From: a virus
Lineage: Duplodnaviria > Heunggongvirae > Uroviricota > Caudoviricetes
Reading direction: 5' to 3' (one strand)
Length of the DNA stretch: 33,220 nt
Virus record (IMG/VR): IMGVR_UViG_2874920711_000012
Coordinates: 1-33,220 of that record
Made by a program: the position numbers and the translations under genes. The notes beneath the pieces are model-generated. The model searched no databases, was not told the DNA's origin, and was given only the letters and a program-made list of their open reading frames with translations. Numbering within the stretch: the first letter of the stretch is position 1; each line of letters opens with the position of its first letter. Of this stretch, positions 13,655 through 31,858 are shown piece by piece.

Positions 13655-15756
13655 TGAGCACAAAATTCAGAACCGTTATCACCACTGCCGGTGCAGCAAA
13701 GCTGGCAGCGGCAACCGCACCGGGAGGCGGAAGGTCAACATTACCACGATGGCCGTCGGGATGGCGGTGGTAAATTGCCTGTCCCGGATGCCGGACAGAC
13801 CGGGCTTATCCATGAAGTCTGGCGACATGCGCTGAACAAAATCAGCCAAGACAAACGAAACAGTAATTATATTATCGCAGAGCTGGTTATTCCGCCGGAG
13901 GTGGGCGGTTTCTGGATGCGTGAGCTTGGCCTGTACGATGATGCGGGAACGTTAATTGCCGTGGCGAACATGGCCGAAAGTTATAAGCCAGCTCTTGCCG
14001 AAGGCTCAGGGCGTTCGCAGACCTGCCGTATGGTCATCATCGTCAGCAGTGTGGCCTCAGTGGAGCTGACCATTGACACCACAACGGTGATGGCGACGCA
14101 GGATTACGTTGATGACAAAATTGCAGAGCACGAACAGTCACGACGTCACCCGGACGCCTCGCTGACCGCAAAAGGTTTTACTCAGTTAAGCAGTGCGACC
14201 AACAGCATGTCTGAAACACTGGCTGCAACGTCGAGAGCGGTAAAGACCGCCTATGACCTTGCTAACGGGAAATATACCGCGCAGGATGCCACCACCGCGC
14301 GAAAAGGCCTTGTTCAGCTCAGTAGTGCGACTAACAGCACGTCTGAAACGCTCGCCGCAACGCCGAAAGCATATGACCTTGCTAACGGGAAATACACTGC
14401 ACAGGATGCCACAACAGCGCGAAAAGGCCTTGTTCAGCTCAGTAGCGCCACCAACAGTGATTCTGAAACGCAGGCTGCAACGCCAAAGGCGGTGAAGTCT
14501 GCCTATGACAATGCTGAAAAACGTCTTCAGAAAGATCAGAACGGTGCGGATATCCCTGATAAAGAACGCTTCCTGAGTAACATTAATGTTTACAGCAAAG
14601 GTGAAGTGGATAAGAAAAAGGGAATGCGAAAGTATTCGTTTGCAGCCCCTGCAAATGTCGTTGCCGGGAAGTGGTACCCCGTTATCTTTCGCCGTGCTGC
14701 CAGCCTTTCAGGAGAAATGGCATCCCGCGTTGTTATTTCCACTGGTTGTTATAACGGCGATTATGTAATGAATAACTGCGAGTTTAATGGCATGGTTATG
14801 CCCGGAGGCTGGACTGATCGTGGTTCATATGCGGCAGGTTATTACTGGACGTATCAGACTAATGAGCGTTCAATCCATTCCATTGTTACAAGCCTGAAAG
14901 ATGATGATGTATGTAGTGTTTTTTATGTTGAAGCCAGAGCTTTCCCTGTACAAATTCTTGCAGAGGAAGGGCTAACGGTTATTGTTCCGACAGAGGATTA
15001 TGTCGTCGGTCAAACGACATATAAGTGGGGGGCAACTAATCCCGCTACAGAAAGCACGAACGCACAGGCTATTCTGGATTTTAAAAATGGACGTGGTTAT
15101 TACTGTTCACATCCATTTATTTCCAGCCTTTCAGGAAATGCTGCAACAGCAACGAAGTTAGCGAACGCAAGAAATATTAATGGTGTCAGATTTGATGGCT
15201 CTGCCGATATAAATATTAATACACTGGTATCCAGAAACCGTGTTACTGCATTAGGTGGGAGCGTAAAGGGGACACCAGGTATTCAGATGTATGAGGCATA
15301 CAACAATGGCTACCCAACAGCCTATGGTAATGTGCTTCATCTCACTGGCGTAACCGCAGTAGGAGAGGGTGAGTTACTTATTGGTTGGAGTGGAACCAGC
15401 GGTGCTCATGCTCCGGCATATATTCGTTCCCGACGAGATACCACAGATGCTAACTGGTCTGGATGGGCGCAACTATATACAACTGCTCATAAACCTCAGC
15501 GGGAGATGTTGGTGCATACACCAAAACTGAGTCAGATTCACGTTATGTGAGAGACATGCGGCTGGGCGGTGCATCTACATATAAACCAGCAAATAATGGT
15601 ACTACATGGACGCATCAGGCTCCGTCAGGTTGCGTATATACCGGCATTATTGTTCAGGATACCGGCTCAAACTCTGCCGATAACATTGGTGGCGTATATT
15701 ACAGACCGGTGCAGAAATACATTAACGGGACATGGTATAACGTGGTGCAGGTATAA
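13655..15756 (+). CDS. H: Tail fiber protein gpH (apparent frameshifts near 13725, 13760 and 15545)
   Basis: ATG 13655 encodes MSTKFRTVITTAGAAKLAAATAPG (gpH N-terminus); frame breaks in G-runs; contains SSATNS…AYDLANGKYTAQDATTARKGLVQL repeats; AT-rich distal (receptor-binding) part continues into ORF 15547-15756. Confidence 0.8.
14170..14480 (+). repeat. Coding tandem repeats (~120-nt unit, about 3 copies) inside the tail fiber gene
   Basis: Repeated peptide QLSSATNS(x)SETLAATPKA…YDLANGKYTAQDATTARKGLV visible three times in the gpH translation. Confidence 0.6.
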
Positions 15757-15759
15757 TTT

Positions 15760-16287
15760 ATGCAGCATTTAAAAAATATTACGGCGGGTAATCCAAAAAC
15801 GGTTGAACAATATCAATTGACAAAGGACTTTGATGTTGTCTGGTTTTTTTCAGAAGATGGTAAGAACTGGTACGAAGAACAAAAGTATTTTGCTGATGAC
15901 ACGATAAAAATAGCGTACGACAAAGATAATATCATCCACTATGTGGAAAAGGATGTGACAGCTATCAGACCGGATGGATTAAGTGTTGTTGAAGTGGCGG
16001 ATATTACTGCTAACCGACGGGCGGACATTTCAGGGAACTGGATGTTTAAGGACGGCAAAGTGATTAAACGCGTTTATACGGCAGAGGAATTACAGCAGCA
16101 GGCAGAAATTCGGAAAGCCAGACTTCTTGCAGATGCTGAATCCGTGATTTTGCCGCTGGAGCGCGCGGTCAGACTGAACATGGCAACAGATGAGGAGCGT
16201 AGCCGACTGGAATCATGGGAACGCTACAGCGTTCTGGTCAGTCGTGTGGATCCTGCAAATCCTGAATGGCCGGAAATGCCGCAATAA
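15760..16287 (+). CDS. G: Tail fiber assembly chaperone gpG
   Basis: 175-aa ORF immediately after H, P2 gpG-like. Confidence 0.85.
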
Positions 16288-16337
16288 GTTGTATTAGCTT
16301 ACATATCTATGGCACAGAGTAAAGCCTAATCTGATAG

Positions 16338-16372
16338 TCCGCTCTGTGCCAGGAGCAGACATTACCAACGTT
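16338..16372. repeat. Copy A of a ~35-nt conserved motif (GC-rich stem with loop TGTGCCAG) that recurs at 20342-20376
   Basis: TCCGCTCTGTGCCAGGAGCAGACATTACCAACGTT versus TTCGCTTTGTGCCAGGAGCGGACGTTGCCAGCATT, about 80% identity; also pairs with an upstream arm TGGCACAGAG (16310-16319 with 16342-16351). Confidence 0.5.
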
Positions 16373-16644
16373 ATGACCCTCGATTACATCAAAGAGCCCT
16401 ATAGCCGAAACCTGCACCATAGCCATCTCTGTAGAATTCGTCCTAGGGGCTTTTAACAGACCTAGTTGTATGGATCGGAAGGAAATATTAAAGCTCAAGG
16501 CGTCAGTCCAGTGCTGTCCTGTTTGCTTACCACACGAAAGAGTGCTGCTTGTACCTGCTAACTAATGGTATGCGGAGTGAGGGGGCGGGTAGAACCAAAA
16601 GCACTTACTACGTGTGGCGCTCTCCTGGAAGAGGAGACGTCGAA

Positions 16645-16731
16645 GTGATAACGCTAACAACAGTCTTACTGGTGATGCAAATAATGCTAGCTGGTCTGGT
16701 TGTCATCAAGCAACTGACCGGACGCCCGTAA
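16645..16731 (+). CDS. Candidate small hydrophobic peptide (28 aa, GTG start), type I toxin-like
   Basis: GAGGAG Shine-Dalgarno 8 nt upstream of GTG; peptide MITLTTVLLVMQIMLAGLVVIKQLTGRP; an intrinsic terminator hairpin follows and is split by IS2. Speculative. Confidence 0.3.
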   Translation: MITLTTVLLVMQIMLAGLVVIKQLTGRP

Positions 16732-16865
16732 GGGATGGAGGAACTTGATTAAAGGCAGGGGGTTACCTCCCCTGCTAGACTGGCCCCTGAATCTCCAGAC
16801 AACCAGTATCACTTAAATAAGTGATAGTCTTAATACTAGTTTTTAGACTAGTCATTGGAGTACAG

Positions 16866-17231
16866 ATGATTGATGTCTTAGGGCCGGAGAAACGCAGACG
16901 GCGTACCACACAGGAAAAGATCGCAATTGTTCAGCAGAGCTTTGAACCGGGGATGACGGTCTCCCTCGTTGCCCGGCAACATGGTGTAGCAGCCAGCCAG
17001 TTATTTCTCTGGCGTAAGCAATACCAGGAAGGAAGTCTTACTGCTGTGGCCGCCGGAGAACAGGTTGTTCCTGCCTCTGAACTTGCTGCCGCCATGAAGC
17101 AGATTAAAGAACTCCAGCGCCTGCTCGGCAAGAAAACGATGGAAAATGAACTCCTCAAAGAAGCCGTTGAATATGGACGGGCAAAAAAGTGGATAGCGCA
17201 CGCGCCCTTATTGCCCGGGGATGGGGAGTAA
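16866..17231 (+). CDS. insC: IS2 InsC (orfA)
   Basis: [56 protein letters not shown]… IS3-family orfA. Confidence 0.85.
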
Positions 17232-18094
17232 GCTTAGTCAGCCGTTGTCTCCGGGTGTCGCGTGCGCAGTTGCACGTCATTCTCAGACGAACCGATGACT
17301 GGATGGATGGCCGCCGCAGTCGTCACACTGATGATACGGATGTGCTTCTCCGTATACACCATGTTATCGGAGAGCTGCCCACGTATGGTTATCGTCGGGT
17401 ATGGGCGCTGCTTCGCAGACAGGCAGAACTTGATGGTATGCCTGCGAACAATGCCAAACGTGTTTACCGGATCATGCGCCAGAATGCGCTGTTGCTTGAG
17501 CGAAAACCTGCTGTACCGCCATCGAAACGGGCACATACAGGCAGAGTGGCCGTGAAAGAAAGCAATCAGCGATGGTGCTCTGACGGGTTCGAGTTCTGCT
17601 GTGATAACGGAGAGAGACTGCGTGTCACGTTCGCGCTGGACTGCTGTGATCGTGAGGCACTGCACTGGGCGGTGACTACCGGCGGCTTCAACAGTGAAAC
17701 AGTACAGGACGTCATGCTGGGAGCGGTGGAACGCCGCTTCGGCAACGATCTTCCGTCGTCTCCAGTGGAGTGGCTGACGGATAATGGTTCATGCTACCGG
17801 GCTAATGAAACACGCCAGTTCGCCCGGATGTTGGGACTTGAACCGAAGAACACGGCGGTGCGGAGTCCGGAGAGTAACGGAATAGCAGAGAGCTTCGTGA
17901 AAACGATAAAGCGTGACTACATCAGTATCATGCCCAAACCAGACGGGTTAACGGCAGCAAAGAACCTTGCAGAGGCGTTCGAGCATTATAACGAATGGCA
18001 TCCGCATAGTGCGCTGGGTTATCGCTCGCCACGGGAATATCTGCGGCAGCGGGCTTGTAATGGGTTAAGTGATAACAGATGTCTGGAAATATAG
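17189..18094 (+). CDS. insD: IS2 InsD (orfB, DDE transposase domain)
   Basis: 301-aa ORF overlapping insC in another frame, typical IS3-family orfA/orfB arrangement. Confidence 0.85.
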
Positions 18095-18180
18095 GGGCAA
18101 ATCCACCTGCCTTTTTTCGTTTCTGCGCAAGTTAGCTCTGTTATTATAATCCTTACTCACACTGTAAGGACATAGTTCAA

Positions 18181-18309
18181 ATGACTGAATGGCTTAATGC
18201 ACATTTTGGTGCAGACGCAGCTACCTATCTTAGCTTATTAGTCGGCGTACTGGCACTGTTTGGTATTGGGGCGGTGTTACATATAGAATCAGACAGCAAA
18301 ACAACATAA
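18181..18309 (+). CDS. Small TM peptide ORF (42 aa); possibly the N-terminal part of one gene with 18339-18797
   Basis: ATG at 18181 with AAGGA upstream and a TATAAT at 18145-18150; hydrophobic stretch LSLLVGVLALFGIGAVL. The downstream ORF frame is open back to 18232, so a single base difference in 18232-18306 would fuse the two. Confidence 0.4.
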   Translation: MTEWLNAHFGADAATYLSLLVGVLALFGIGAVLHIESDSKTT

Positions 18310-18338
18310 AACAGAAGGCAAAGAAAACCGAGGGTGAT

Positions 18339-18797
18339 GTGAACCAGGCCGGGCGGGATATTAATCAGACCACCAACGTTTACCACACATCCAATGAATC
18401 TACTGAGGACCCTGTAAAAAAAAAGCAAGATGAACATGATCTGAAGATAATCGACCAGATCCTTGAATTGCTGCCTTATGAGGATACTACTCAATGGGTT
18501 GAGCAGAGCTACCTGAGCGGTATACGGCAAGATGTTTGCTTAAACATTGAAAAAGCTGAAAAATTTAGCGGTGAAAAGTATCGGTTATTCAATACTGAAG
18601 TGAATGGTGCGAAAGACGCTTTTTTGGACGCTATGACCGCATACGTAGATAGTACGCTACCATTTATGAGTGTTGATTACCCGAACAGAAAGCCAGTGAT
18701 GCTAAGCCTTCCCCATGACTGGAAGAGTAAGAGTGTTGAATCGGAGGCAAACTTCCGCTTTCATCAGCAAAATGTGCGTGAAACATCGGGGGGATGA
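18339..18797 (+). CDS. Hypothetical protein (152 aa as called)
   Basis: AT-rich ORF with no recognised motif; followed by a terminator hairpin that is split by the IS10-like element. Confidence 0.5.
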   Translation: MNQAGRDINQTTNVYHTSNESTEDPVKKKQDEHDLKIIDQILELLPYEDTTQWVEQSYLSGIRQDVCLNIEKAEKFSGEKYRLFNTEVNGAKDAFLDAMTAYVDSTLPFMSVDYPNRKPVMLSLPHDWKSKSVESEANFRFHQQNVRETSGG

Positions 18798-18955
18798 TTG
18801 CGCGCTATGAGGATTTTGTCAGGACATTTAAGGCTCATGGATTCATAAGCGATAAACTGTAAAGGCGCAGTGGGTCAGCGAACACCGCAACGACAGAACC
18901 GCGTAAGCGGTAAAATCAGCTTGTTAACTGGCGAGTTTATAGCCGTCCCTCCGGG

Positions 18956-20255
18956 CTGAGGGATCCCCACAAAATTACTGCTAATAAACCAGCACCATAT
19001 TTCGGTAGGTTCTGGACAGATGGTTTAGAACTGTGCTCAGTACTGTTCGTCTTAAAATAAGTGGCGAGTGTCGAAGAACATTCTTCGCTAACGTCAGATA
19101 TGAGATAACCCGCCGGGATTTAATGCTGTTAGCCTGATATTTCAGGTGTAACCCTTTATTTTCAGCGTGATAACCGAGTAACCACATTACGATAGTGCTC
19201 AACGTTGCCAGCAGACTCAGAACCAGAATTCTTCCTGTTGAACGACTTTTGCTGGCCCGAAGACCAAATCCGAAGCGCCCGTTCTTTTCATCACGAAAGT
19301 TTTGCTCTATCTGCATTCGCCGACTGTATAACTTGATGATTTCTCGCGCTCTGAAGTCATTTGTACTGCTGAAGATCAACCAGGCTTCTTTTGCTGATTT
19401 GCTCTGTTCTTTGTCTGTTTTGTTTAAACCACTCTGACCTTTCGAACGTTTCTTTTTTCGCCCTTTTGCCGATTTCTTATAGGTGTAAAAATGCCCCGGA
19501 TGCTTTTTTTCCTTTCTTTAACCAGCCTTCCAGCCCCCATATATTCCGGTGTTTTACATTCAGGGCTATCCGACACTTTTAACCATCTTTCAGGCGCGTT
19601 ATCGAGGCAATACTGAACGTTATTTCTGATCCGACCAATAAAATCCCAGCCCAGAGAAGTAATATGGTGAAACCATGCGCTCTGAAATCCAGCATCCGTG
19701 ACAATAATAACCCTGGCATCGGGGGGCAGGGATTGAGCAAGGGAATCAAGGAAATCATGTTGTATCAATGGATTATTTTGTTTTTCAGAAGGAACAACCT
19801 TACTCAATAACGGAATGGAACGCCCGTCACACAGAAGGCTGGCACGAAGAACATGATGCTCCTGGGAGGGATAGCCACTCCAGTCTACGGCTATTACACA
19901 TAAAGATAACTGCCGTGTCAGCATTGAAGTGATATTCCTGAAAATCATTGGAATATCGCGATGGAGCGCCTCATTACCCATGAGGCGATCAATACGTTTG
20001 CTCTTATTCTTAACTTGTGCATTACCCGGGAAAAAACGTCCGATACTGGTCAGCGTCAGAGATGCTCCGTTGATTAACGCCACTGTGGCATCCATCAGGG
20101 CATTTTGTCGGTACTGATGAAATGGTGCTAAGGCATCCCGGAAGAAATTCTGACATACTTTATGAACAGGCATAGCAGTGATCTCATTGAATTGTTGGCA
20201 CAAATCAGTAGATCACATAATGCTATGTCTGTCTCGTTTTCTGGGAATTCCTCAG
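18956..20255 (-). mobile_element. IS10-like element (IS4 family, ~1300 bp) with 9-bp target-site duplication CCCTCCGGG
   Basis: Imperfect terminal inverted repeats CTGAGGGATCCCCACAAAA (18956-) and complement of CTGAGGAATTCCCAGAAAA (-20255); direct repeats at 18947-18955 and 20256-20264; inserted in a terminator hairpin. Confidence 0.75.
18981..20203 (-). CDS. IS10-like DDE transposase, split into two ORFs (apparent frameshift near 19380-19425)
   Basis: N-part has KRIDRLMGN, IAVDWSG and IVTDAGF motifs; C-part has the YREK signature (YSRRMQIEQNFRDEK); clear colinearity with IS10 transposase as recalled. Confidence 0.75.
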
Positions 20256-20341
20256 CCCTCCGGGGCGGCTTTTTTATGACTATAATCGACAGAATCACCT
20301 GAACGTCCAGGTGGGTTTCCCTGACAGGACGTCAAGGAATG

Positions 20342-20376
20342 TTCGCTTTGTGCCAGGAGCGGACGTTGCCAGCATT
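20342..20376. repeat. Copy B of the ~35-nt conserved motif seen at 16338-16372
   Basis: See copy A; lies in the intergenic region ~150 bp upstream of the 20526 ORF. Confidence 0.5.
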
Positions 20377-21472: not shown

Positions 21473-22826
<1,354 letters not shown>

Positions 22827-22898
22827 TGGAGCACCTGTGTTGTTCTGAGGTGAGCATATCACCTCTGTTCAGGTGGCCAAATTCAGTGTGCCACTTCA

Positions 22899-23475
22899 AC
22901 TCGACGATCAACGATAGCGGAGACTCAGGTGCAATCTCGGAGCGAATCGCCGTAAGAGAGAGTCGGAGCTCCTTCAAAGAATCCGAGACTCGTGCTGGAT
23001 CCTCTTGAGCATATGGCAGATAAAGAGAACTCTTGTCTTCCAATAAATGGATCAACCGCAGAGCAATTTTCTCGTCTGGGCGATGCGATAGAAATTGAAA
23101 CATTAGCCTCTTTCCTCCCTCCAAGCACTCCTTCATTAGTGATTCGTGGTCACGTTTCCATTTTCGCAAATACTCGGCGGGGTAGCCCATACCGCCATTC
23201 TTATCAACTAAATCAGCACAAGCTCCGCACAACCATATAGCATTTTTTATGCTCTTCCGCTCTGTTTCTGACTGAGACATGTCATAGCGCGGTCCGCCAG
23301 GGCTCGCCGCGCAGATATGCGCCGCCTCACCCGTCTTGATAGAAAGATTTTCCGCCAATTGATCCGGGCCGATTGTTACCCTATGACAAGAGGGATTGCT
23401 ACAAATATATGTAGCGCGCTCTGCTACCTTACCTACAACGCTTGGAGGAAAGTTGTGCCTATTTGTCTTGGTCAT
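22899..23475 (-). pseudogene. 5' part of an HNH-nuclease-domain gene (~250 aa when rejoined), interrupted by IS911
   Basis: N-terminal region has CSNPSC, AAHICAASPGGPRY and NAIWLCGACADLV, an HNH-like arrangement; the ORF-track C-terminus beyond 22899 is IS911-derived. Confidence 0.6.
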
Positions 23476-23499
23476 AAAAGTTATGCTTCTTTGTTTTTT

Positions 23500-24597
23500 T
23501 CATCTATGTGGGGAGAATAAAATCATACTTTTTATATCTGATCCTAAATAGCTGCGCTTAATACCGCTACACTTTTGCCAGTCCATGTTTGCCTCCGGGA
23601 ATGGGCTGACGGTTTCCATAAAATGGCGAACTTTTTTCAACAGTTGCCACATTGAGCGGCACTGATGATTACGCGTTATTGTGTCGTGAAGTGCCTGCCA
23701 TAGCCGTTCAACATGATTCACCCATGGCGAGTAAACCGGCTGATAAATGACCCTGAACTTCGGGTTCTCCTTCAGCCAGCTCTGTGTTTCCCGGCTTTTG
23801 TGGATAATGTAGTTGTCCACGATCAGCGTGATGGTTTTCGCCCGACGGTATGTCGCTTTAAGCCGCTTCAGCAGGCTGATGAACAGCGCCGAACTTTTGC
23901 TGTTGCCGCCCACATAGCTGACTTTACCTGTCCCGCTGTGCAGCGCTCCGGCCAGATAATATTTTTCATTCTGTCCCGGCGTGACCACCCGTTTTTGCTG
24001 TCCGCGCAGTTGCCAGTCCGCACCGATTTTGGGATGAAGATGGATATCCACTTCATCTTCATAAAAGACCGGATGCTCTGCGCTGCATTCGTCCAGTGCT
24101 TTATGGATTGCTGCCATCTTTTCATCTTTATGCGGGTCACGGATACGCAGAGTTGGCGCAGCCCTTCGCCACACAATCCCCGCAGACGGCAACCAGCGGC
24201 GAACGGTTCCGGCATTTAACTGGCAACCGGTTATCTCATTGATTTTTATTGCCAGCAGTTCTGTACTCCAGCGTGAACGCTGGTAGACAAAGTCGCCGGG
24301 AGAATGTTTTACCAGCTCACGTAACAGTGTGCAGATATGCTCAAACGGCCAGCGACGGGCACGCCCGGCAGGTAATGATTTCAGTCCCTCAACACCCGAC
24401 TGCGTGAACCAGTTAATCCAGCGTCCAACAGAGGAACGGGCGCAGCAGAGCGTTCTGGCAACGTCGCTGACACGGTCGCCCCGGTGCAGCATCAGCATGG
24501 CAGTCAGTCTGCGGGCATAATTTTTATCGTGTGTTTTATGGATGGCTTTCTGCATCAGGCGTCGTTCGTCACGGGAAATTGGTGCTATGATCGGCAT
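23500..24597 (-). CDS. IS630 transposase (ORF as called runs past the IS end)
   Basis: MPIIAPISRDERRLMQKAIHKTHDKNYARRLTAMLMLHRGDRVSDVARTLCCARSSVGRW… matches IS630 transposase as recalled; the last ~15 codons lie outside the element. Confidence 0.85.
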   Translation of the reverse strand: MPIIAPISRDERRLMQKAIHKTHDKNYARRLTAMLMLHRGDRVSDVARTLCCARSSVGRWINWFTQSGVEGLKSLPAGRARRWPFEHICTLLRELVKHSPGDFVYQRSRWSTELLAIKINEITGCQLNAGTVRRWLPSAGIVWRRAAPTLRIRDPHKDEKMAAIHKALDECSAEHPVFYEDEVDIHLHPKIGADWQLRGQQKRVVTPGQNEKYYLAGALHSGTGKVSYVGGNSKSSALFISLLKRLKATYRRAKTITLIVDNYIIHKSRETQSWLKENPKFRVIYQPVYSPWVNHVERLWQALHDTITRNHQCRSMWQLLKKVRHFMETVSPFPEANMDWQKCSGIKRSYLGSDIKSMILFSPHR

Positions 24598-24698
24598 TGC
24601 TCAGTCCGGTTGGTGATTTGTTTTGATTTGGCGATTGATCAGATCGCACAATCCGGGCTAAGTTCCCTCAAAATGATCTACTATTCCGCGCAGCTATT
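23547..24698 (-). mobile_element. IS630 (1152 bp) inserted at a CTAG target with TA duplication
   Basis: Terminal inverted repeats AATAGCTGCGC… at both ends; TA at 23545-23546 and 24699-24700, flanked by C and G. Confidence 0.85.
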
Positions 24699-24993
24699 TA
24701 GGTCTGACCAGCAACCTATTGATCAAAAAACCAAGATATTAGCTAAAAAAATCAGCATACTTGAGACCAAGCTCAATGTCCGCTCCTCGCTCAAAGCAGA
24801 CTGTCAGATTTGATAGCATTTGGGCTATGTAAATTGTCAGGCGGAAAATGAGTGAGTACAAATCAGGACAGGCGGGCGAATTGCCCGCATTTTCTTTATC
24901 TGTTGTTTCATCCCCTGACCAGCCAGGTCAAATAGCGTCTCATGCTCTGCACAACAGAAAATAGTTGCACCCATTAACCACGGAGTTAAACGG

Positions 24994-26182
24994 ATGAGTG
25001 ACTATCATCACGGCGTGCAGGTGCTGGAGATTAACGACGGCACCCGCGTCATTTCCACCGTATCCACGGCCATTGTCGGCATGGTCTGCACGGCCAGCGA
25101 TGCAGATGCGGAAACCTTCCCCTCAATAAACCGGTGCTGATTACCAATGTGCAGAGCGCAATTGCAAAGGCCGGTAAAAAAGGCACGCTGGCGGCGTCGT
25201 TACAGGCCATCGCTGACCAGTCAAAACCGGTCACCGTTGTTGTGCGCGTGGAAGACGGCACCGGCGACGACGAAGAAACGAAGCTCGCGCAGACCGTTTC
25301 CAATATCATCGGCACCACCGACGAAAACGGTCAGTACACCGGACTGAAAGCCCTGCTGGCGGCGGAGTCGGTAACCGGTGTTAAACCGCGCATTCTCGGT
25401 GTGCCGGGACTGGATACCAAAGAGGTGGCTGTTGCACTGGCATCAGTCTGTCAGAAGCTGCGCGCTTTCGGGTATATCAGCGCATGGGGCTGTAAAACCA
25501 TTTCCGAGGTGAAAGCCTACCGCCAGAATTTCAGCCAGCGTGAGCTGATGGTCATCTGGCCGGATTTCCTCGCATGGGATACGGTCACCAGTACCACCTC
25601 CACCGCGTATGCCACCGCCCGTGCGCTGGGGCTGCGCGCTAAAATCGACCAGGAGCAGGGCTGGCATAAAACGCTGTCCAACGTCGGGGTGAACGGTGTT
25701 ACCGGCATCAGCGCGTCCGTATTCTGGGATTTGCAGGAGTCCGGCACCGATGCTGACCTGCTTAACGAGTCAGGCGTCACAACGCTGATTCGCCGTGACG
25801 GTTTCCGCTTCTGGGTAACCGTACCTGCTCTGATGACCCGCTGTTCCTCTTTGAAAACTACACCCGCACCGCGCAGGTGCTGGCCGACACGATGGCTGAG
25901 GCGCACATGTGGGCGGTGGACAAGCCCATCACCGCAACGCTGATTCGCGACATCGTTGACGGCATCAATGCCAAATTCCGTGAGCTGAAAACAAACGGCT
26001 ATATCGTGGATGCGACCTGCTGGTTCAGCGAAGAATCCAACGATGCGGAAACCCTCAAGGCCGGAAAACTGTATATCGACTACGACTATACACCGGTGCC
26101 TCCTCTCGAAAACCTGACCCTGCGCCAGCGTATTACCGATAAATACCAGGCAAATCTGGTCACCTCGGTTAACAGCAATTAA
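24994..26182 (+). pseudogene. FI: Tail sheath protein gpFI with two apparent frameshifts (near 25125 and 25820)
   Basis: [43 protein letters not shown] then a stop; adding one C to the C-run restores …[11 protein letters not shown]…; a second break near GFRFW. Confidence 0.85.
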
Positions 26183-31687: not shown

Positions 31688-31714
31688 AAAAAATAAGCCC
31701 GTGTAAGGGAGATT
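31688..31714. other. attR: P2 att core at the prophage right junction (attR)
   Basis: AAAAAATAAGCCCGTGTAAGGGAGATT matches the recalled P2 att core; overlaps the CyaR terminator. Confidence 0.65.
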
Positions 31715-31774
31715 ACACAGGCTAAGGAGGTGGTTCCTGGTACAGCTAGCATTTTATGGGTTATGTTTTTCAGC
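31688..31774 (-). ncRNA. cyaR: CyaR (RyeE) Hfq-dependent sRNA
   Basis: Reverse complement reads GCTGAAAAACATAACCCATAAAATGCTAGCTGTACCAGGAACCACCTCCTTAGCCTGTGTAATCTCCCTTACACGGGCTTATTTTTT, matching CyaR as recalled, including its terminator. Confidence 0.85.
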
Positions 31775-31858
31775 GAAACGGATGATAACCTTAATAAATG
31801 CAGCTGTATGTGATCGGTTTCTAAGAATTTTCCATCCGGGAAAAATAATCGAAATTAA

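Follow-up and report, generated by a model that had tools for sequence, protein, structure and literature searches.

It was found that the 488 bases that follow gene G in the window (the whole stretch of 33,220 nucleotides of phage DNA that was analysed) are probably a composite of two unrelated elements that adjoin each other and do not form one unit. The first element, at positions 16296-16363, is the left boundary repeat of the Z/fun cargo hotspot of P2, which has already been described. The second, at positions 16511-16775 together with a displaced T tract, is in the same composite reading the probable 3′ two-thirds of a type I toxin-antitoxin locus. Judging from sequence, complete versions with both a toxin and an antisense RNA appear to lie unannotated on about 30 enterobacterial plasmids, and the copy in the window has most likely fallen silent, as an orphan remnant carried in a mobile cargo cassette. 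The features of the window on which this reading rests are as follows.

15760-16287: gene G, a phage tail fibre assembly gene (Caudo_TAP match)
16296-16363, plus strand: left inverted repeat of the P2 Z/fun hotspot, including the 10-bp inverted repeat 16310-16319 / 16342-16351
16337-16372, plus strand: junction palindrome, copy 1 (repeat family D1/D2), arms GTCCGCTC / GAGCAGAC around the 8-nt spacer TGTGCCAG
16364-16510, plus strand: cassette-specific upstream segment, in the position of the sRNA gene and toxin promoter of the plasmid loci
16511-16644, plus strand: conserved part of the toxin 5′ UTR (alignments A3 and A4)
16542-16563, plus strand: putative target box for the antisense RNA, GTGCTGCTTGTACCTGCTAACT, lying 82-103 nt before the start codon and present once in the window
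16616-16641, plus strand: predicted hairpin burying the ribosome-binding site (GGCG-C-TCTCCT / AGGAGA-CGTC)
16645-16731, plus strand: small ORF with a GTG start for a hydrophobic peptide of 28 aa, an allele, shortened by a 3-codon deletion, of a 31-aa peptide that is conserved
16751-16775, plus strand: intrinsic terminator stem-loop of the toxin transcript, its T tract moved away by IS2
16776-18105, plus strand: IS2 insertion (terminal inverted repeats I1; ORFs with HTH_Tnp_1 and rve), delimited by comparison with uninterrupted loci
18106-18180, plus strand: displaced T tract (18112-18117), then the downstream promoter
18181-18862, plus strand: downstream cargo gene for a 227-aa protein, frameshifted here (GGGG instead of GGGGG)
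20341-20376, plus strand: junction palindrome, copy 2, in direct orientation, closing the cassette
24774-24838, minus strand: right inverted repeat of the hotspot (inverted repeat I4, a profile match), with a variant-spacer inverted copy of the palindrome

An earlier note had read positions 16288-16775 as a structured non-coding leader that ends in a gene for a small hydrophobic peptide and a split terminator. All of the features it described are present at these coordinates, and there is indeed no long ORF; the longest frames encode 63 aa (minus strand) and 60 aa (plus strand). Matches to the hairpin region occur in about 630 Escherichia coli genomes and 70 phage records, while the ORF and the terminator were found again in 33 genomes of E. 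coli, in two of Serratia, and on 30 plasmids. Since they are conserved across genomes and plasmids, the features are more than chance. It was their assignment to a single unit that had to be revised.

The 10-bp perfect inverted repeat (TGGCACAGAG at 16310-16319 with CTCTGTGCCA at 16342-16351) lies in a 66-nt segment with a predicted folding energy of -20.7 kcal/mol (z = -2.98; 2 of 200 shuffles folded equally well). The alternative hairpin, GTCCGCTC..GAGCAGAC at 16337-16360, is also real (-11.1 kcal/mol, z = -2.44, by folding). The two folds are mutually exclusive because some bases of the small hairpin also belong to the right arm of the larger repeat. However, these hairpins are not a leader of the peptide gene. 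The roughly 630 E. coli genomes and 70 phage records match the query at its positions 9-76 only, corresponding to 16296-16363; the matches stop at query positions 64-88, and the flanks diverge directly after GACRTT. In P2-like phages, the repeat is present irrespective of the cargo between its copies, and GenBank entries AJ512676-AJ512680 label this region as the left inverted repeat. According to the summary of Nilsson 2004 in PMC8987985, fun is bounded by inverted repeats, and site-specific recombination at the repeats was proposed there. In sequence and in position, immediately downstream of G and ahead of the FI promoter, the repeat in the window is the same as the Z/fun repeats of Nilsson, Karlsson and Haggard-Ljungquist 2004; here, too, the left and right copies are inverted, with the cargo replaced between them. 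The window differs in having a third copy, in direct orientation, inside the hotspot (20341). The right repeat lies just upstream of the FI promoter region, with FI beginning at 24996, and P2 itself has a segment homologous to it.

The earlier note's model, in which the two exclusive hairpins at 16310-16360 would act as a regulatory leader governing peptide synthesis, is thus already contradicted by the distribution data and has hardly any probability left. Both folds exist and exclude each other, and according to PMC5066626, dinQ translation is regulated by mutually exclusive structures. Nevertheless, hundreds of P2-like prophages with unrelated cargo and no peptide gene have these hairpins as their left inverted repeat, and the hairpins end about 150 nt upstream of position ~16511, where homology to the toxin loci begins. 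The small hairpin also stands after the cassette and in many unrelated elements, the left arm of the large repeat is missing from the Serratia cassettes, and the plasmid loci have the complete system without any such hairpins.

The inner end of the left boundary repeat is a palindrome of about 30 nt, and the alternative hairpin of the earlier note is copy 1 of this junction palindrome. One copy of the palindrome stands at each end of the cargo cassette (16337 and 20341), and an inverted one marks the right-hand limit of the hotspot (24774). The palindrome pattern is found twice in the window against none expected, and copy 2 folds into a 12-pair hairpin of -14.6 kcal/mol. Direct copies bound the cassette in every context examined, namely P2, island, and Serratia contexts, and further occurrences of the core palindrome are in CP4-like islands, Serratia, the K-12 Qin prophage, and some plasmid records. 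The Qin copy adjoins relBE-hokD. The arms, GTCCGCTY / GAGCRGAC, are 8-11 bp long and inverted around an asymmetric 8-nt spacer. Two spacer types bracket the cargo: TGTGCCAG and, in the inverted copy of the window, TGAGCGAG (read on the same strand). Since inverted arms with an asymmetric spacer are the core-site architecture of tyrosine recombinases, it may tentatively be suggested that the alternative hairpin is a recombination site and that exchange between like sites swaps whole cassettes, as a natural form of recombinase-mediated cassette exchange. If so, exchange would connect P2 hotspots, CP4-like islands, lambdoid prophages, Serratia chromosomes, and plasmids; the proposal of Nilsson 2004 would then be extended by the broader distribution, the direct copy inside the hotspot, and the existence of two spacer types. 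Two other readings of the palindrome were rejected. A sigma-54 site formed with TTGC does not fit, as TTGC accompanies only about a quarter of the copies, and an integron attC site was judged not to fit because the palindrome is too short and has no R''/R' core pattern. A search beside the palindrome copies for tRNA genes gave fragments only, and a full-text literature search with the palindrome sequence returned no papers. In any case, a palindrome at the cassette junctions offers a concrete, testable handle on cargo exchange in the P2 defence hotspot.

The second element begins around position 16511, from which 271 nt align by blastn with plasmid loci at 75-77% identity (E values from 1e-47 to 1e-53). 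The GAGGAG-GTG start of the earlier note is there, with GAGGAG at 16631-16636, an 8-nt spacer, and GTG at 16645, and so is the hydrophobic peptide of 28 codons, MITLTTVLLVMQIMLAGLVVIKQLTGRP, which ends with TAA at 16729-16731. By tblastn, full-length relatives of the peptide that are 58-76% identical were found on 30 plasmids. In all nine of the diverged loci, the ORF has 31 codons and a GTG start. With 28 aa here and 31 aa in these nine homologues, the peptide falls among small hydrophobic single-helix toxins of about 27-31 aa. In peptide alignment A5, a hydrophobic core and the polar C-terminus KQLTGRP are conserved. Pairwise dN/dS among the nine diverged loci is below 1 in all 36 pairs, with a median of 0.48, so that the ORF is under purifying selection in plasmids. 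The chromosomal copies of the cassette are 98-99% identical within E. coli and are therefore uninformative on selection. Deletion alleles of 28 aa and 24 aa, the latter in S. proteamaculans, were found in chromosomal copies only; in the window, three codons were lost in frame within the membrane helix.

No matches to the peptide were found in Pfam, NCBIfam, or PADLOC. Neither the 28-aa nor the 31-aa form matched the DinQ model NF041472 or the DqlB model NF041473 at E values up to 10; as a control, the reference DinQ and DqlB matched their own models (1e-14 and 9e-21) and cross-matched weakly. In a profile comparison of the peptide with DqlB, hhalign gave a probability of 0.45%. Protein database searches with extended ORFs returned a handful of entries called 'hypothetical protein', exact-pattern scans of metagenomes and viruses returned near-identical copies only, and a full-text literature search with the peptide returned no papers. 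The reading of the ORF as the pseudogene of a larger protein was rejected, as no larger protein has the same C-terminus and a +40 nt indel in Serratia breaks all other frames of the leader. A candidate cis-antisense promoter inside the ORF (TTGATG-17-CATTAT, with the end of the -10 element near 16681) was also rejected; its score equals the best regional scores, it is deleted in S. proteamaculans, and no terminator goes with it.

Upstream of the ORF, the folding prediction places GAGGAG in a hairpin at 16616-16641, with a probability of being unpaired of about 0 at five of the six bases and 1.0 at the first G. The hairpin over the ribosome-binding site is predicted in all 11 homologues, with compensated changes. 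A possible long-range helix between the 5′ and 3′ parts is also predicted, with one-sided changes only. On these predictions, the structured element that is proper to the toxin mRNA is the hairpin at 16616-16641 and not those at 16310-16360.

Downstream of the ORF, the claim that a terminator has been split by an insertion proved correct. The stem-loop is at 16751-16775, and its T tract is now at 18112-18117. Between them lies an element of about 1.33 kb that has two overlapping transposase ORFs, terminal inverted repeats, and a 5-bp target duplication, CCTGC, on either side (16771-16775 and 18106-18110); by the sequence of its ends, it is taken to be IS2, of the IS3 family. The uninterrupted homologues read AAAGGCAGGGGGGTACCTCCCCTGCCTTTTTT, which is a 13-pair terminator, and its stem co-varies across the family. 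Five overlapping terminator-like calls fall on this hairpin, whereas 0.6 were expected from shuffles. An intact intrinsic terminator, with the hairpin directly before the T tract, is found in the homologues and not in the window. E. coli SE11, cM2a, and strain 144 have the intact cassette. The strong terminator would be the one part with an obvious remaining role, which is to stop read-through from the late tail operon in intact cassettes.

What do the complete loci look like? On the plasmids, they are arranged like tisB/istR and dinQ/agrB, with a predicted divergent gene for an sRNA of about 97 nt. Examples of complete loci are those of Klebsiella pHNLDL3-2 (NZ_MN319465.1, 42575-43085) and Erwinia billingiae (NZ_CP031696.1, about 72280-72820). 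The free 5′ end of the sRNA matches a box of 16-24 nt in the toxin UTR. In seven of the eight loci, one copy of the box lies in the UTR and another in the divergent sRNA gene, at its 5′ end; the box falls into two sequence classes, and both copies co-vary. A minus-strand promoter was found in two loci (L106 and L109) and a minus-strand terminator in all three that were scanned (L106, L109, and L112); together, these signals delimit the sRNA. The plus-strand toxin promoter, TTGCGG-17-TATACT, was read off the plasmid alignment; a consensus scan made no call. The sRNA consensus has a free 5′ end, with compensatory changes in 8 of its 21 pairs, and the agrB of pOXA-48 aligns with it. Rfam gave nothing relevant for the whole window at the gathering threshold, for 16200-16800 at E values up to 10, or for five plasmid loci at E values up to 1. 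In the proposed mechanism, the toxin mRNA of the plasmid loci would have a 5′ UTR of about 190 nt with its ribosome-binding site locked in the hairpin. The sRNA of about 97 nt, transcribed divergently from the upstream region, would pair through its free 5′ end with the 16-24 nt box some 80-100 nt upstream of the start codon and block toxin synthesis. After plasmid loss, the sRNA would decay and the 31-aa membrane peptide would kill the cell. Both the toxicity of the peptide family and its repression by the predicted sRNA are presumed from the architecture.

The closest known system is agrB/dqlB of pOXA-48, whose toxin has 31 aa and for which toxicity and rescue were demonstrated experimentally in 2025 (PMC12365149). 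Both systems have a hydrophobic toxin ORF of 31 codons, a long 5′ UTR with a box complementary to a divergent upstream sRNA, and a plasmid location beside maintenance and leading-region genes. The form of the sRNA terminator, AAAAAAACCCG..CGGGTTTT, and the UTR box AACAGGTGGTGCTGT are common to both, and the 3′ terminators are alike, AAAGGCGGGG..CCCCGCCTTTT. Among these common landmarks (the sRNA terminator, the AACAGGTGGTGCTGT box, the length and position of the ORF, and the 3′ terminator), the window keeps the last three. However, by the model and profile comparisons described above (NF041473, NF041472, and hhalign), the peptides are unrelated, and the target box has another sequence and is 16-24 nt long instead of 35 nt. 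A DNA search with the Klebsiella locus found 33 plasmids, none of them among the IncL/M, IncI, and IncX carriers of dqlB, and the window copy differs further in having neither the sRNA gene nor the promoter. As for dinQ/agrA-agrB of E. coli K-12, PMC3567139 and PMC5066626 describe a single-pass membrane peptide of about 30 aa, as here, and a divergent sRNA that is complementary to the toxin mRNA as an antisense RNA. They also state that the primary transcript of dinQ is translationally inert owing to RNA structure; the ribosome-binding site is predicted to be buried here also. In contrast, dinQ is chromosomal and SOS-regulated according to PMC3567139, and there is no similarity between the peptides. 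Since the peptide matches neither the DinQ nor the DqlB model, it looks like a third DinQ-like branch. From the non-coding landmarks and the layout, the family looks like an unnamed sister branch of the DinQ/DqlB family, and this likeness could partly be convergent.

More distant parallels come from tisB/istR-1, zorO/orzO, and shoB/ohsC, type I systems with a divergent gene for a trans-pairing sRNA upstream. Short complementarity far upstream of the start codon is shared, here at 82-103 nt, a distance that resembles the standby-site arrangement of tisB. There is no sequence relationship, and those systems are chromosomal core or island genes, while the new family is plasmid-borne and the window copy an orphan. 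The type I likeness pointed out in the earlier note therefore stands for the family: the peptide looks like a relative of type I toxins, the complete plasmid loci have a type I layout, and the non-coding landmarks are shared with the validated agrB/dqlB. It fails for the window, which is not a functional toxin-antitoxin locus and has neither an antisense or antitoxin gene nor a convincing promoter.

The window copy keeps only the 3′ 270 nt, comprising the target box, the ribosome-binding-site hairpin, the ORF, and the terminator. Segment 16364-16510 gave chance matches only when compared with the plasmid toxin loci by blastn at word size 7. In a position-weight scan, no convincing sigma-70 promoter was found in the leader (16364-16644), nor did a terminator scan find a minus-strand terminator at the window locus, and there is no matching sRNA gene in 5426 E. 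coli genomes. The Serratia copies have indels of +12 and +40 nt in the equivalent of 16364-16510. The proposed history is that this copy was captured together with the gene of the 227-aa protein into a mobile cassette, which travels among P2 hotspots, CP4-like islands, and Serratia chromosomes. Within this cassette, the sRNA gene and the toxin promoter would have been replaced by unrelated sequence and the peptide would have lost three codons from its membrane helix; in the window, IS2 then cut the terminator. From the loss of the sRNA gene and promoter, the codon deletion, and IS2, it is most likely that the copy is a weakly transcribed, translationally locked, and probably harmless remnant. 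There may be a weak or non-canonical promoter in 16364-16510, or read-through from gene G.

Is the small ORF instead a working gene of the cassette? It could encode a small membrane protein or an attenuated toxin that acts with the 227-aa protein, for example in phage exclusion; its transcripts would then be extensions of those of the late tail operon, or start at a promoter that was not recognised as such. No copy seen has a broken ORF, and both chromosomal deletions are in frame, which has a chance of about 1 in 9 under neutrality; thus, the peptide could still be used. The toxin unit and the 227-aa gene always occur together between two copies of the palindrome, the hotspot is known to harbour a stock of anti-phage genes (PMC9122126), and a neighbouring cargo gene with an HNH-like domain matches the candidate defence family PDC-M68A. 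The 227-aa protein is intact as WP_000141343.1, and a hydrophobic stretch at its N-terminus was read by eye as a possible membrane anchor. On the other hand, the 227-aa gene has its own promoter after the strong terminator, with an extended -10 element (TGTTATTAT / TATAAT, within 18106-18180) and the best promoter score of the region, whereas for the ORF the scan found none and the ribosome-binding site is predicted to be buried. Six distant homologues of the 227-aa protein (37-59% identical, within an overall range of 36-63%) lie in other mobile elements with no such ORF or leader upstream, and an obligate partnership was rejected on this ground. A working cassette gene is therefore an unlikely reading. 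Still less probable is that selection keeps an RNA element, either the strong terminator, shielding the cargo gene from late-operon read-through, or a 3′ end that acts as an Hfq-type sRNA, with the ORF as a passenger. The 13-pair terminator is preceded by an A/U-rich stretch, P2 itself has a terminator directly after G, and the hairpins after G in the window would not stop the tail-operon transcript because they have no T tract. Yet a terminator alone needs no 270 nt of conserved UTR and ORF, and the plasmid ORF is under purifying selection.

The remnant of a type I locus thus remains the preferred reading of the second element, and keeping it apart from the boundary repeat of the hotspot avoids a wrong annotation. 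The window would be a natural example of the decay or domestication of a toxin in a phage cargo cassette, in which a toxin gene has been parted from its antitoxin, with loss of the promoter, in-frame deletions in the membrane helix, and an IS insertion. Apparently unannotated type I loci of the same family are carried by plasmids of Pantoea, Erwinia, Serratia, Klebsiella, Mixta, Proteus, and Providencia, the classical plasmid Rts1 among them, and the loci match no model in Pfam, NCBIfam, or Rfam. In the study of pOXA-48, it was noted that dqlB itself is often left unannotated because of its small size (PMC12365149). If these loci are post-segregational killers like agrB/dqlB, they would be relevant to plasmid persistence and to plasmid-curing strategies.

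The window is a P2-like prophage, in which I studied the 488 bases bounded by the tail gene G and an IS2 element. The Z/fun locus is one of two variable cargo regions in P2-like phages (PMC9122126), and in P2 itself fun(Z) occupies the position between G and the FI late promoter. The features of this hotspot in the window are as follows.

Features in and around the cargo hotspot
15760-16287, gene G, tail fibre assembly (Caudo_TAP, E 1.5e-33)
16337-16372, palindrome, copy 1
16776-18105, IS2 (named from its end sequence), target duplication CCTGC
~18975-20236, IS4-family element with a broken transposase
20341-20376, palindrome, copy 2, direct, with a 12-pair stem
~21648-22902, IS3-family element
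22807-23475, minus strand, cargo gene (RefSeq annotation DUF6650), HNH-like nuclease domain at the N-terminus
~23480-24702, IS630-family element
24774-24806, palindrome, copy 3, inverted, with a variant spacer
24774-24838, right repeat of the hotspot, just upstream of the FI promoter region

The prophage looks defective; the frame from the FI (tail sheath) ATG (24996-25943) contains two stop codons, and the tail genes downstream of FI appear as several shorter ORFs. The tail fibre gene H (13691-15550) has an internal tandem duplication of a ~35-aa segment at 14253-14495 (…TAKGFTQLSSATNS…AYDLANGKYTAQDATTARKGLVQLSSATNS…), and its long ORF has a GTG start downstream of a short overlapping ATG ORF. 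At the right edge lies the CyaR sRNA gene (Rfam RF00112, 100.7 bits; 31691-31776, minus strand). This prophage remnant also occurs in E. coli cM2a, where it adjoins yegS-yegR and the gat operon.

The earlier note had described this region as a structured leader followed by a candidate gene for a small hydrophobic peptide, in a layout like that of type I toxin or small membrane-protein loci. The observation was borne out, every listed feature being found in its place, and the interpretation was partly right. The 10-bp inverted repeat (16310-16319 with 16342-16351) folds at -20.7 kcal/mol (z = -2.98), and the overlapping GTCCGCTC..GAGCAGAC hairpin reaches -11.1 kcal/mol when folded alone. Since bases are common to both, the two folds are mutually exclusive. 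GAGGAG (16631-16636) stands 8 nt before the GTG at 16645, which opens a hydrophobic ORF of 28 codons ending at 16731. The terminator behind it (stem 16751-16775) is split by IS2, inserted exactly between stem and T tract; in uninterrupted homologues the intact terminator reads AAAGGCAGGGGGGTACCTCCCCTGCCTTTTTT.

The hairpins, proposed as the leader of the peptide gene, proved to have another affiliation. Used as a megablast query on 5426 complete E. coli genomes, the 488-base region matched 663, only 32 of which cover it entirely. In the ~630 others the match is limited to query positions 9-76 (16296-16363), as it is in 70 phage records, all P2-like. GenBank entries AJ512676-AJ512680 (Nilsson and co-workers) annotate this stretch as the 'left inverted repeat' of the Z region, and its partner, the right repeat, is present in P2 itself. 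The hairpins at 16310-16360 are part of the hotspot and not of the peptide unit. The 10-bp repeat exists because, 22 nt before the palindrome, P2-type left repeats have an additional half-copy of it in inverted orientation (TGGCACAGAG).

The smaller hairpin, GTCCGCTC-TGTGCCAG-GAGCAGAC, is one copy of a ~30-nt imperfect palindrome with the consensus GTCCGCTY TGTGCCAG GAGCRGACRTT. The exact pattern TGTGCCAGGAGCRGACRTT occurs in at least 80 viral-contig DNA stretches in many contexts. A 40-nt consensus was found in about half of the E. coli genomes, at 1-5 places each, including the Qin prophage of K-12 inside 'ydfV' beside relBE-hokD (L103, 2498-2530); a few matches fall on plasmid records. The palindrome lies at cargo junctions of P2 hotspots, CP4-like islands, Serratia and the Qin prophage (the window copies and the loci L020-L096 and L103), and homology between contexts ends directly after GACRTT. 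An inverted subtype with a different spacer is often back to back with the main type. The arms vary without clear compensation in this sample, which was ascertained on the right arm. The palindrome may be a recombinase site, a short-homology linker or an RNA element.

Two direct palindrome copies flank the same cassette in every context, namely P2 hotspots (those of E. coli cM2a and of three viral contigs), two Serratia chromosomes, and CP4-like islands, where it adjoins a divergent GTPase-Ag43 block. The cassette is made up of ~410 nt of non-coding DNA that include the small ORF and its terminator, an extended -10 promoter, and a 227-aa gene with a terminator. The 227-aa protein has a hydrophobic N-terminal stretch; in the window (18181-18862) its gene is frameshifted by a run of 4 G instead of 5. 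The small ORF is not an obligate partner of this gene, because six more distant homologues (37-59% identical; all matches 36-63%) lie on other mobile elements with no such ORF upstream. The 227-aa protein belongs to a small family of 16 clusters, always encoded on mobile elements; the homologue in Vibrio alginolyticus (L101) lies amid repeated 29-36 aa pseudo-ORFs resembling integron attC repeats. Beyond IS2, the rest of the hotspot has three further IS elements, making four within 8.5 kb. The window probably derives from an IS-rich Shigella-like genome; a 100% identical cargo protein fragment was found on a record from Shigella dysenteriae (P0005). In E. coli E24377A (L104, NC_009801.1 ~3363860), IS66 interrupts the cassette leader after 150 nt, another independent IS insertion. 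The DUF6650 cargo gene, truncated (222 aa versus 250 aa) beside the IS3-family element, has matches to CBASS/SAVED-HNH effectors and to PDC-M68A, a candidate defence family in PADLOC.

The small ORF belongs to a real gene family. When 72,556 plasmids were searched by tblastn with the 31-aa allele from Serratia, 30 records, of Pantoea, Erwinia, Serratia, Klebsiella, Mixta, Proteus (Rts1), Providencia, Citrobacter and Escherichia, matched it over its full length at 58-76% identity. In all eight plasmid records fetched, the ORF lies in unannotated DNA or within an over-long 'hypothetical protein' call, such as the 84-aa one that conceals it in Rts1 (NC_003905.1 ~209930-210400). A GTG start and exactly 31 codons are common to these eight loci and Serratia montpellierensis. 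Among the nine loci, dN/dS stays under 1 in each of the 36 pairwise comparisons (median 0.48); the chromosomal copies resemble one another too closely to reveal selection. Substitutions largely exchange I, V, L and M for one another, and the C-terminal (I/V)IKQLTGRP hardly varies. The E. coli (28 aa) and S. proteamaculans (24 aa) alleles have in-frame deletions within the hydrophobic helix, which are weak evidence either way.

In a ~450-nt alignment and consensus scans, the plasmid loci show the layout of a type I toxin-antitoxin system. All three loci scanned have an intrinsic terminator on the minus strand (AAAAAAAACCCGG..CCGGGTT as read on the plus strand), and a minus-strand sigma-70 promoter (TTGACG-16/17-TAAAAT or TAATAT) ~100 nt from it was called in two (L106 and L109). 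Thus, a divergent sRNA of ~97 nt is predicted. At its 5′ end, ~22 nt match in reverse complement a box that lies in the toxin 5′ UTR, 80-100 nt ahead of the GTG; seven of the eight loci repeat the box identically over 16-24 bases. Two box classes exist, GTGCTGCTTGTACCTGCTAACT and CTGCATGTATCGACTCG, and both copies change together. In the consensus structure of the sRNA, a free 5′ end is followed by a stem-loop in the middle and by the terminator, with compensatory changes in 8 of 21 pairs. The ribosome-binding site lies within a predicted hairpin in 11 of 11 sequences, with compensated changes (TCTCCT/AGGAGA, CCTCCT/AGGAGG, CTCTCC/GGAGAG), and the 3′ terminator stem also co-varies among loci. 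From the conserved TATAAT/TATACT with TTGCGG 17 nt upstream in the alignment, I infer the toxin promoter; the plus-strand consensus scan did not call the TTGCGG/TATACT element. Complete unannotated loci, with a 31-aa predicted toxin and the sRNA, are on ~30 plasmids (L105-L112; e.g. NZ_MN319465.1 42575-43085), near the maintenance and leading-region genes psiA, parM/parA and umuC, a resolvase-type integrase gene and the H-NS gene.

A 2025 study of pOXA-48 identified and validated agrB/dqlB as a DinQ-like type I system (PMC12365149). The DqlB peptide is toxic, the agrB sRNA rescues through a 35-nt pairing region in which compensatory mutations restore rescue, and the system causes killing after plasmid loss (PMC12365149). 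The RefSeq record of pOXA-48 annotates dqlB as a 31-aa ORF. The plasmid loci have the same order of parts and share the sRNA terminator, the AACAGGTGGTGCTGT UTR box and the 3′ terminator, and agrB aligns with their predicted sRNA. DqlB has no recognisable relation to the new peptides (hhalign probability 0.45%). DqlB and DinQ match their own NCBIfam models and cross-match weakly, whereas the new peptides match neither model and so fall outside both named families by sequence. A DNA search with the Klebsiella locus found 33 plasmids only, against thousands bearing dqlB. Because layout and landmarks resemble agrB/dqlB yet the peptide matches neither model, I read the family as a third, unnamed DinQ-like branch that would work like agrB/dqlB.

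The window copy is an orphan. Its homology to the plasmid loci starts at ~16511 and extends over 271 nt as far as the terminator (75-77% identity, E as low as 1e-53), with no match in 16364-16510. The target box (16542-16563) is single; no minus-strand terminator was found in the window locus, and no convincing sigma-70 promoter upstream of the small ORF. The Erwinia-type antitoxin sRNA gene was absent from the 5426 E. coli genomes, which gave the 22-nt box alone. Thus, the cassette unit consists of the target box, a ribosome-binding site predicted to be locked, the ORF and the terminator, with no antitoxin and no recognisable promoter. Given this, together with the IS2 insertion and with in-frame helix deletions that affect two of the three chromosomal lineages, the simplest reading of the sequence is that the window copy would be a silenced, decaying toxin gene. 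Since the hairpins that follow G lack a T tract, transcription of the late tail genes would otherwise continue into the cargo; the strong terminator may stay useful in intact cassettes by stopping it there. Of the proposed type I locus, the kind of peptide stands, while the leader and a functional toxin-antitoxin pair in the window do not. The most useful outcome is the unannotated plasmid family.
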